This document shows, piece after piece, positions 1 to 3,000 of a DNA stretch of 7,575 nt. The number at the start of each line of letters is the position of its first letter. The stretch's first letter is position 1. Made by a program: the position numbers. Origin of the DNA: a virus (taxonomy: Duplodnaviria > Heunggongvirae > Uroviricota > Caudoviricetes); IMG/VR virus record IMGVR_UViG_2534681674_000011, one strand, 5' to 3'.

Positions 1-3000
1 GAACGCCACATAGACGAAGCCCTGCCATGTGCTGACGTAAGTAAAATCAGCCACCCACAGCTGGTCAGGACGTTCTGCCACGAACTGACGGTTTACGCGG
101 TCGCCTGCGGAAACGGCTTTCCGGCTGACGGTAGTACGGACCTTTTTACCCCGGAGAACACCGGCAAGTCCCATAACCGCCATGAGGCGCGCCACTGTAC
201 ATCCGGCCACCCTGATACCTTCGCGTAACAACTGGCGCCAGACTTTACGCACACCGTACACCTGATGATTTTCATCGTATACGCGCTGTATCTCTCTCTT
301 CAGCCAGTCATCGTGCTGCGCACGGGCACTGCGTTTATCCGGATGATGTCGCTGTTGCTGACAATGGTAATACGTTGACGGGGCAATATGCAGTTCGCTG
401 CATACCGGTCCGACCCCGTACTGCTCACGCAGCTTATCCAGCAGCGGCATTATTTTTTCCAGAGGCGGTCGAACTCCGCCTTCGCAAAATAAGCGGAAGC
501 CTGGCGAAGGATATCGTTACTGCGGCGCAGTTCACGATTTTCACGTTCCAGCTCTTTCAGACGCTGACGTTCAGCGGTGGTGAGTCCACCATCACCACTC
601 CCGGTATCCCGCTCATGCTGACGAACCCACACACGCAGAGTCTCTGGTGTACAGCCAATCTTTGGGGCAATGGAACAAATTGCCGCCCATTGTGAGTCAT
701 ATTCGCCCTGACTTTCCAGAACCATACGAACTGCCCGTTGACGGACCTCGGGGGAAAAACGTGTATTTTTAGTCATCCTGTTTACCTCTTTCTCAGGGAG
801 TTTAGTCTCCAGGATTCCCGGGGCGGTTCACATTTTTCCTTCGACAACTTCATGCCCGGGACGACAGGTTTACCATCCACCAGGATGGCACCGCGGCAGA
901 TGGTCCAGATACCCGTACCATCACGGTATGCTGTGGTGTGGTTACCTTCCTTTTCATCCAGAAACTGGTCGAGGATTTCAGGCGCAGACGCCCCTGCACC
1001 AATCAGCGCCAGAACGGCAGCCGACAGGCCGTATCTGATTTTTGCGTTCATGGATATTTATCAGGATTTATCGATTTCAAATCCCTGGATATGTTAAGTC
1101 TTCAGGCCAGCGGTGGAGTCTTCAGAGAACCAGTAATTATTCCCGGTAGTTTTCCTCTGTAGGTTATCAACACATCCTGCGCCTCTAAAATGATGGGCCG
1201 CTTTTCCGGCAACGGACCATCCCCTTCACATAACCCGGCAGCAACATCCATGAAAAACTGCTTCGCCTGCTTTTTCGCCTCAGCTTCGTAAAACTCCAGC
1301 GTGGCACCTTCAGTACGGTCAAGACTAATCGCCACATCTGGCAACAACAGTGACGGATACCCACCAATTTCCAGTGCCACAGTAACAGTAATCTTATCCG
1401 GGTAATTATTTATCCCTTTAACAACCAGTTCGTATTTTTTCTTCATCACTTTACTCTCCCCGCACCGCCTTACGCCGGTCCTCTCTGATTTTGAAATACA
1501 GGTTAGTCAGATACGTCAGCAGGCCAAACAGCAGACTCCCCAGTACACCTATTGCCACCCACTGGGACGGAGAGACTTTGTCCAGCAGTTGCAGTAACCA
1601 GTATCCCGTCCCTACCGCTGACGTGGTGTATGACACACCTGTTGTGATTTTTTCCATCTGATGTATGTCTCCGTCACCGCCGACAGAAAATGAAAGTAAA
1701 GGAAAACAAAAAGCCGCCAGTGTCACCCACTGACGGCCAACTCCGGGAGCCGTGATTATGGCATTCAGGCTCTGCTAAAAATGCCAGATAACATTCCGGC
1801 CCCCCTGGTTCAGGTTATAAATGACACAATATCTTGACAACATCCGTCACTGTCTGTCAGAAAATATACCGCCAGGCATAAGTATCATGTGAAATCCAAC
1901 TATCCTTCTGAGCCAGCACCTCTCCACCGAAAGTCAGTGCTGGCTGTTTTTTTCCTTAATAAAGCATCTGTAACTGAAACAATCCGCATATTGATAATAT
2001 ATTGACAGGCATCATTGCTGTCTGTGAAAAATAAGTCTCTACAAACATATAAGGCCTTTTAGCCAGCGTCTTCTTTCAGGTCAGTCGCTGGCTCTTTTTT
2101 TATTATGCTGCCGGTGCATTTATCTCCAGCACCAGACTTTCTATCTCAACGCCATACGCTGCATTTTTTGTAACATCCGTCAGCGTCAGCGCATTCAGTC
2201 CCAGTGTCAGACTGTCTTTTATAACCTGGAATGCCGGGCCAGCCACTCCATTCAGTTTCGGAGTAACCGTGGCACTGCCGGCGGTGAACACCAGCTCCAG
2301 CGTCTGCCAGTCGTTACCGTAATCGCCGAACTCCCCCAGCTTCGTGTTTCCGGCTTTCCTGTGATGCATCAGATTCACTCTGCCGTCAGTGGTCTGAGTG
2401 AAGTACGACATCAGGAACGGATTACCGGTACCCGTCATCGCCACACCATCAGGAACGGGAGCATCCGTATACAGATAAATCCCCAGCCCGAACTGATTGT
2501 TGGTCAGCGCGCCTGACAGGCGGAACTTACAGGTCAGTCTGCCGCCCTGTGTCAGCAGGGTAATTGCGTCATCCACCGGATGCGTCAGGGACCAGGTTTT
2601 ATTGCTCTGCTTGGTGATCTTAAATACACCATCTGACAACTGAATTCCGCCATCCTTAATGCTCCAGCCCTGCGCAGCAGCCTCTCCGTCTGCCGGCAGC
2701 AGGGAGATTGTGCGAACGGACGTATCTGCAGACGGACCCGATGGCGTGTTGCCGCCGGGCGAGGGTTTGATTTCCGGTGCCTTACCACTGATGAAGGCTG
2801 AGGTGCGCCCGGCTGCGTTCAGAATAGCGGTTGCCAGACGATCCGGAATAATGCTCCTGCGCGCCCATGAACTGAAATGTGTCGGGCGGTTTGATGATAC
2901 CTGGTTTCCATTCGTTCTCGATGCCGCACCGTAATATCCTGATGCCGGAATATCCGGATCTTCTGCCGGCGCGTTAGTGGCGGTATTGACACCGTTACCG

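Follow-up and report, generated by a model that had tools for sequence, protein, structure and literature searches.

A modular DUF1327 gene between the pinholin and endolysin genes of Shiga toxin phage DNA and its possible link to RNase E

The closest described relative of the gene discussed here is ydfR of the Qin prophage in Escherichia coli K-12 (UniProt P76160; gene order holin-ydfR-rrrQ). Our subject is the DUF1327 gene (1102-1446, minus strand) carried by a 7,575-nucleotide (nt) stretch of Caudoviricetes DNA (IMG/VR record IMGVR_UViG_2534681674_000011), which is called the window throughout. Both genes encode PF07041 proteins, begin 4 nt after an S21-type holin gene and precede a gene for a 177-amino-acid (aa) lysozyme; YdfR, however, is 103 aa long with a helical tail and its stop codon overlaps the start of the lysozyme gene R, whereas the window protein is 114 aa long, ends in a different tail module, M, and is followed by a 50-nt spacer. 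Window positions 831-2100 are 100% identical to the Shiga toxin (Stx) phage H-19B (AF034975), whose record from the 1990s annotates S and R and leaves the intervening 399 nt blank; RefSeq labels the product in related phages and E. coli genomes 'YdfR family protein'. With gene, family and position already annotated, the finding itself is ordinary, and its interest lies in the function of a very common gene beside stx. The reading that we prefer, tentatively and with less than even confidence, is that the gene encodes a late-expressed soluble accessory protein whose N-terminal domain has a cytoplasmic target, RNase E or RNA being the leading candidate, and that it sits at the S-R junction but is no core part of lysis.

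The lead to RNase E comes from the K-12 protein. In a two-hybrid screen of RNase E interactors, YdfR was recovered three times as residues 1-72, and full-length YdfR is positive with Rne 1-597, which covers the RNase E catalytic half (PMC13232886, published in 2026). Rne 1-598 co-elutes with Strep-YdfR, the eluate holds about 30 times as much DNase-resistant nucleic acid as the control, and the protein was placed in group II of the interactors of the RNase E N-terminal domain; over-expression of ydfR altered few transcripts (PMC13232886). Our searches of the literature on DUF1327, ydfR, rrrQ/essQ and pinholins together with Shiga returned no functional study besides this one. The YdfR region that binds RNase E, residues 1-72, is exactly the domain conserved throughout the family, and the N-terminal domain of the window protein (N-domain; codons 1-72, 1231-1446, minus strand) is 47% identical to residues 1-74 of K-12-type YdfR. 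The sequence data themselves establish the identity of the gene, its coupling geometry, modularity, selection and distribution, and its contexts inside and outside Escherichia; for the window protein we infer late expression, a cytoplasmic location and an RNase E/RNA activity, the last by analogy with this 47%-identical homologue.

In the mechanism we propose, the DUF1327 gene would be co-transcribed with S and translationally coupled to it, and its product would be made late in infection. The protein would be a moron-like passenger of the late operon, an accessory rather than a working part of the machinery formed by the pinholin and the signal-anchor-release (SAR) endolysin. By homology with K-12 YdfR, its N-domain may bind the N-terminal catalytic half of host RNase E, RNA, or both, and such binding could tune the decay of particular transcripts in lytic growth. 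The slot after S would then be the place where the family settled in Escherichia lambdoid phages, re-using a junction of S stop, Shine-Dalgarno sequence and ATG that otherwise serves R.

The assignment to DUF1327 made in a preliminary description of the locus is firm: the 114-aa product matches PF07041 over residues 1-112 with 155.4 bits (cut-off 25; E 4.7e-46) and phrog_406 with an E value of 1.8e-64. It has no other Pfam match, no match to a holin family and none in NCBIfam, and the defence hidden Markov models of PADLOC-DB match neither the window protein nor the long form, K-12-type YdfR or the stand-alone members described below. The same description had called the protein acidic and soluble-looking, with no obvious transmembrane segment. 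Solubility agrees with a highest 19-residue Kyte-Doolittle window of 1.18, and no hydrophobic segment, signal peptide or lipobox was found; 'acidic' was an overstatement, the isoelectric point of 5.46 and the balance of 15 Asp and Glu against 14 Lys and Arg residues being marginal. The remote homology search that it advised reached the stand-alone homologues, but structure prediction gave no confident fold assignment. The AlphaFold2 (AF2) model comprises strands at residues 5-14, 18-27 and 37-43 followed by a long helix at 50-73; with distant homologues included, the block-mean predicted local distance difference test score (pLDDT) is 74-94 over residues 1-70, and the tail, residues 73-114, stays below 50 in both AF2 models. 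This β-β-β-α arrangement lacks helix 1 of the α-β-β-β-α fold of double-stranded RNA-binding domains (dsRBD). Recurring dsRBD hits faded as the AF2 model improved, Pfam dsrm is not matched, and a profile search against Protein Data Bank (PDB) sequences found no match; a dsRBD fold is therefore not claimed.

On the family alignments, the functional core is the 72-aa N-domain, the sole part conserved across the whole family. The remaining 42 residues (codons 73-114 with the stop, 1102-1230, minus strand; module M, PEKRPIILEAQDVLITYRGKLPGIITGSLKTPP) are, as far as their sequence tells, a recent, Escherichia-specific and exchangeable appendage. Compared with relative L097, the tail differs at about 11-12% of nucleotides and the N-domain at 41%, and the tail codon changes are 5 synonymous and 7 non-synonymous. 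We considered the near-invariant tail (residues 73-112) as a conserved binding motif and rejected this, synonymous sites being equally conserved; such equal conservation at the nucleotide level implies recent mosaic ancestry rather than deep constraint. Elsewhere in the family the tail is replaced by a helical tail (K-12 type, 103 aa), by frameshifted tails (104 aa) or by extensions of 60-70 residues (proteins of 176 and 183 aa) that have no Pfam match, and in database protein P0153 it is joined to a different N-terminus. The N-domain itself is under purifying selection, with a ratio of non-synonymous to synonymous substitution rates (dN/dS) of about 0.2 against a divergent Escherichia lineage for which dS is saturated. 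Among close alleles, the corresponding ratio of proportions of differing sites (pN/pS) is 0.29 for DUF1327 versus 0.10-0.11 for S and R; the full 114 codons are kept in 27 of 39 alleles, and the other 12 lack the normal stop position.

S, the gene for the P21-type class II holin (pinholin), occupies 1451-1657 on the minus strand; it encodes 68 aa (ATG at 1657, TAA at 1453-1451), matches PF04971, 'Bacteriophage P21 holin S', with an E value of 1.6e-32, and is 100% identical to H-19B S, annotated there as similar to S of phage 21. Across the junction (1444-1461) run GGGGAGAG, a Shine-Dalgarno sequence at 1461-1454, the TAA, a single A, GTG at 1449-1447 and the DUF1327 ATG at 1446-1444, in the +1 frame relative to S. 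The 4-nt distance from holin stop to DUF1327 start, already pointed out in the preliminary description, recurs in 79 of 79 measurable loci among 80 close IMG/VR relatives and hence is not accidental; in 61 of these loci the gap from DUF1327 to R is 50 nt. No promoter-like site was found on the minus strand between S and DUF1327. The junction sequence and the related loci thus bear out the earlier view that the gene, directly behind the holin stop, sits in a translational-coupling position. In phages mEp460, PhiR42_1, HannyBb, Evi, 2H10, PhiR12_1 and YYZ-2008, too, DUF1327 starts 3-4 nt past the holin stop and a 177-aa lysozyme gene follows, and the 26 distinct upstream neighbours recorded across 94 loci are without exception S21-type holins, or else truncated or mis-called open reading frames (ORFs) lying over the holin gene. 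As an extra member of P21-type S-R-Rz cassettes without an assigned role, which is how it had been described, DUF1327 is accordingly recurrent in Escherichia.

Two features are absent from the preliminary description: the single start of the holin here and, as set out below, the truncation of R. The holin start is variable. In the window the holin has a single start (ATA CAT CAG ATG in the 1657-1666 region); PA45, a Stx2a phage, and many related loci have a dual start (ATG TAC CAG ATG in PA45; 71 aa), the configuration that gives the antiholin form in phage 21. DUF1327 as a trans-acting antiholin compensating for the lost dual start was rejected, the gene following 71-aa dual-start and 68-aa single-start holins alike. 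In the database proteins P0010 and P0068, holin and DUF1327 are fused in one ORF of 184-187 aa through a 1-nt alteration in or close to the GGGG run that precedes the stop; these entries are probably mutations or sequencing errors, and such changes account for them without programmed frameshifting. On the other side of the gene, the 50-nt spacer that separates the DUF1327 stop from R (1052-1101, minus strand, by sequence reading) holds no recognisable Shine-Dalgarno sequence before the R ATG. Displacement of R from the coupled start to a position behind this spacer could alter the S:R translation ratio.

Outside Escherichia, profile searches reached proteins of 72-86 aa that consist of the N-domain alone. 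In an alignment of 19 sequences, 16 of them stand-alone, all match PF07041 (P0174 with 41 bits); the named sources are Yersinia mollaretii, Y. bercovieri, Pantoea species and Sodalis ligni, and across Escherichia, Yersinia, Pantoea and Sodalis the domain is kept at 25-45% identity with an intact fold prediction. Every stand-alone slot lies in a late operon, in the late orientation, and most have no connection with lysis. Slots among tail genes are the M-L interval of the minor tail genes (L005, L112, L116, L120), the L-K interval (L114/115), the I-J interval or a place immediately ahead of J (L004, L006, L007, L121, L123), and the position directly behind the tape-measure gene (L009, L010). 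Elsewhere the gene follows Rz/Rz1 in a cassette of S21 holin and lysozyme (L008) or comes behind a cassette of GH19 endolysin and DUF2514 (L108-111), and in Pantoea it separates a Q-like antiterminator from holins belonging to other families (L105-107, L117/118). Attention narrows to the 72-aa N-domain, and the function sought should suit tail-operon locations; RNase E/RNA binding is a concrete lead. One of the M-L loci (L005) has a second ORF of 80 aa at 3323-3565, upstream of tail gene M, with a similar strand-strand-strand-helix sequence pattern and the ending ...AIEDANQQLKDLVAGF; it has no Pfam match and is perhaps a paralogue of the DUF1327 domain, more distantly related than the members above.

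The stand-alone genes share another feature. In nearly all of their loci, whatever the slot, an opposite-strand ORF of 58-186 aa begins about 10-50 nt past the DUF1327 stop. Seven loci (L004, L006, L008, L009, L010, L108/110) carry family X1 (phrog_10490; 34-49% pairwise identity) and seven (L007, Evi, L105-107, L116, L117) carry family X2 (phrog_25324), which in E. coli phage Evi sits between DUF1327 and R, with its own terminator between X2 and DUF1327. A family of 182-186 aa recurs in two contexts (L114, L119), the remaining neighbours (L005, L120, L121, L123) include unrelated helical proteins of 58-79 aa, and the long-form DUF1327 genes of E. coli overlap a reverse phrog_2572 gene. DUF1327 subgroups follow the X1 or X2 partner; the window, K-12-type and Sodalis copies have no convergent neighbour. 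The neighbour families have no Pfam or NCBIfam match, and PADLOC gave no significant match for the neighbour genes, one X1 protein being marginal to LmuB (E 0.001, 15.7 bits). With about 20 distinct loci the sample is small, and the convergent neighbour is a lead, either to a two-gene arrangement or to a cargo hotspot.

From its position, a function of DUF1327 in lysis timing or regulation had been suggested, as an antiholin-like protein, an endolysin chaperone or a modulator of SAR release. This inference is not supported: the gene-free S-R cassettes, the tail-operon homologues, the lack of allele co-variation, the missing export signal and the RNase E/RNA data speak against it. PA45 has S and R closely related to the window alleles, has no DUF1327, and starts R at the same GGGGAGAGTAAnnTGATGA junction; because PA45 and other Stx2a phages hold near-identical S and R without the gene, DUF1327 is dispensable for the cassette. 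One and the same DUF1327 allele (proportion of synonymous differences, pS, 0.025) occurs beside S and R alleles diverged at pS 0.19, a mixing which argues against an allele-specific partnership of DUF1327 with either. Since the protein has no membrane or export signal, it cannot directly affect SAR release in the periplasm. As a separate ORF with no holin match and the low Kyte-Doolittle maximum given above, it does not resemble a dual-start or membrane antiholin, and without a hydrophobic segment, signal peptide or lipobox it does not resemble a releasin of the phage Mu type. In a keyword search of a survey of Stx-phage lysis cassettes, the passages returned give the cassette no members besides S, R and Rz/Rz1 (PMC8136144). 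The main argument against inferring a lysis function from position is that most stand-alone homologues occupy slots unrelated to lysis. A modulator that tunes timing or endolysin supply from the cytoplasmic side could work as a RIII-like antiholin on the cytoplasmic tail of the pinholin, as a Gp1-like chaperone of the SAR endolysin, or by displacing R from the coupled start and lowering its translation. In its favour, the S-R slot is the sole location of the gene in Escherichia, invariably beside an S21-type holin and an R21-like lysozyme of 177 aa; the gene takes the start position used by R elsewhere, leaving R behind a spacer without an obvious Shine-Dalgarno sequence; the K-12-type stop overlaps the R start; and some stand-alone members adjoin lysis cassettes (L008, L108-111, L117). 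The Keio ydfR mutant is also among the hits of an envelope-leakiness screen (PMC3879167 supplements), a phenotype which we suspect to reflect polarity on rrrQ, the lysozyme gene that follows. Near-identical S and R that function without the gene, in Stx2a phages and P21-type cassettes, the predominance of tail operons among stand-alone homologues, the independence of DUF1327 alleles from S and R alleles, and the lack of a transmembrane domain (TMD) or signal sequence leave such a modulator unlikely in our judgement.

An accessory protein acting on RNase E or RNA has evidence against it as well. The confinement of Escherichia copies to the S-R slot, behind an S21-type holin and before a 177-aa R, would fit a lysis-linked role too, and the K-12-type overlap of stop and R start embeds the gene deeply in the coupled-translation chain of the cassette. 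The RNase E link comes from one paper on over-expressed, tagged K-12 YdfR, to which the window protein is only 47% identical in the N-domain, and the small number of transcripts changed by over-expression implies that YdfR is not a global RNase E inhibitor. The convergent neighbours raise the further idea of a mobile two-gene unit, in which ancestral DUF1327 was accompanied by a convergent small gene, such as an exclusion or defence moron, expressed in the lysogen from a separate promoter; DUF1327 would act on this neighbour or on its antisense or duplex RNA, or would mark a cargo-insertion hotspot, and the window copy would be an orphan whose neighbour was lost. The slot-independent reverse ORF after the DUF1327 stop, the recurrent partner families (phrog_10490, phrog_25324, the 182-186-aa family and others), the correspondence of DUF1327 subgroups with X1 or X2, the terminator between the two genes in Evi and the phrog_2572 overlap in E. 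coli long forms all point this way. Yet the neighbours belong to at least five unrelated families, none of them kept as the one partner; copies of the Sodalis, K-12 and window types lack a neighbour, PADLOC matches neither gene significantly, shared insertion hotspots could produce the same adjacency, and the loci are few, so we consider the two-gene unit doubtful. Improbable, in our estimate, is a composite in which the protein would be an RNA-binding adaptor, made from the late operon, that directs the RNase E catalytic domain of the host to particular RNAs, ancestrally the transcript of the convergent lysogen-expressed gene or a sense/antisense duplex; the effect would be to silence the cargo gene or to protect the late transcript on going lytic, and the Escherichia copy, having entered the pinholin/SAR-endolysin cassette, might in addition set the S:R expression ratio. 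A functionless or decaying passenger ORF, kept only through its linkage to lysis genes, would suit the many truncated, frameshifted, fused and tail-swapped database variants, the displaced or missing stops in 12 of 39 close alleles, a pN/pS above that of S and R, and the slight transcriptome effect of ydfR over-expression (PMC13232886). It is made highly improbable by the N-domain dN/dS of about 0.2 across lineages with saturated dS, by the persistence of the domain in four genera with its predicted fold intact, and by its occurrence in over half of the complete E. coli genomes, at up to 8 copies each.

Among 5,426 complete E. coli genomes, window-type DNA is present in 2,923, with up to 8 copies per genome, and K-12-type ydfR in 3,572. 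In sequence space the family is very small all the same, with 282 clusters (90% identity) in a set of 5.8 billion proteins and 93 representatives (50% identity) in a set of 1.84 billion. In GTDB, with one genome per species, the close family is found only in E. coli, Shigella, E. ruysiae, E. albertii and two bins of metagenome-assembled genomes (MAGs), the latter two occurrences looking like contamination. In the phage collection, S21-type holins occur in 427 records and DUF1327 in 101. Records with DUF1327 over records with the holin number 41/47 for Stx1a, 15/17 for Stx2c and 2/124 for Stx2a, a tracking of toxin subtype that is probably a phage-backbone effect and that is worth knowing when toxin release is compared. 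The gene is among the commonest uncharacterised E. coli prophage genes and lies inside the cassette that releases Shiga toxin. Modulation of lysis or of late-transcript stability, if true, could affect toxin release and would help to explain differences between Stx1a and Stx2c phages, which mostly have the gene, and Stx2a phages, which mostly lack it.

In order of transcription, the minus strand of the window carries ninG, ninH, Q, stx1A, stx1B, a gene for a 616-aa SASA-family esterase, a 440-nt gap, the P21-type holin gene, DUF1327 and the start of the lysozyme gene. The last is the 5' part of the R21-like SAR endolysin gene R (830-1051, about 74 codons), whose ORF from 1051 matches PF00959 (phage lysozyme) at residues 33-75 and shows, read from the sequence, a hydrophobic N-terminal stretch rich in Gly and Ala along with an E-x8-D-x5-T motif. 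After about codon 74 it is cut at about 829 by an IS3-family insertion sequence (IS), into which the ORF continues; identity to the intact H-19B R (177 aa) stops at 831, and a prophage with such an interrupted R probably cannot lyse by itself. The element, partial in the window (1-829, minus strand), has orfA at 450-776, an HTH_Tnp_1 match, the RefSeq label 'IS3 family transposase' and an ALIL frameshift pseudoknot at 379-495 on the minus strand (Rfam, 120 bits). PA45 has its IS at the same insertion point, which suggests a hotspot or spread by recombination. Just upstream of S, a hairpin scan of the sequence found a strong terminator-like hairpin with an 11-bp stem and a T-run (1712-1738, minus strand), which would stop read-through into the lysis genes unless transcription is antiterminated by Q. 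Terminator-like hairpins with T-runs also occur on the plus strand of the esterase-holin gap, at about 1913-1950 and 2079-2100, with no annotated plus-strand gene feeding either. Between stx1B and the esterase gene, Rfam recognises the anti-GcvB small RNA AgvB at 4100-4159 on the plus strand (56.6 bits, just above the gathering score of 56) and STnc100 at 4161-4374 on the minus strand (190.7 bits).

Among known lysis regulators, the dual-start antiholins S21-71 and S107 are, like DUF1327, encoded in the holin region, and both they and it have been proposed to tune lysis timing; the former are membrane proteins made from the holin frame, whereas DUF1327 is a separate soluble protein that has no TMD and lies beside both 71-aa and 68-aa holins. 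T4 RIII, a small soluble cytoplasmic antiholin, cooperates with RI to inhibit lysis by a class III holin. DUF1327 shares its small size and solubility and might likewise act on the cytoplasmic domain of a holin, but it has no sequence or family match to RIII. Gp1 of mycobacteriophage Ms6 is an endolysin export chaperone encoded just upstream of lysA. Gp1 and DUF1327 are both small and slightly acidic and are encoded directly upstream of an endolysin gene, with no homology between them; unlike the Ms6 endolysin, which has its Gp1 chaperone, SAR endolysins use their own signal-anchor for Sec export. The releasin of phage Mu is a membrane protein, whereas DUF1327 lacks a TMD. Releasin, gp25, is likewise an extra protein of a lysis cassette, where it regulates SAR endolysin release (PMC9239132).

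Modulation of RNase E by DUF1327 would have parallels of another kind, by analogy: RapZ, RraA, T7 gp0.7 and phiKZ Dip have no sequence or fold relation to DUF1327, and the effect of excess YdfR is limited to few transcripts. Phage control of RNase E nonetheless has precedents in T7 gp0.7 and phiKZ Dip. Among these proteins, it is RapZ that K-12 YdfR resembles, in co-eluting with Rne 1-598 and in carrying RNA (PMC13232886).

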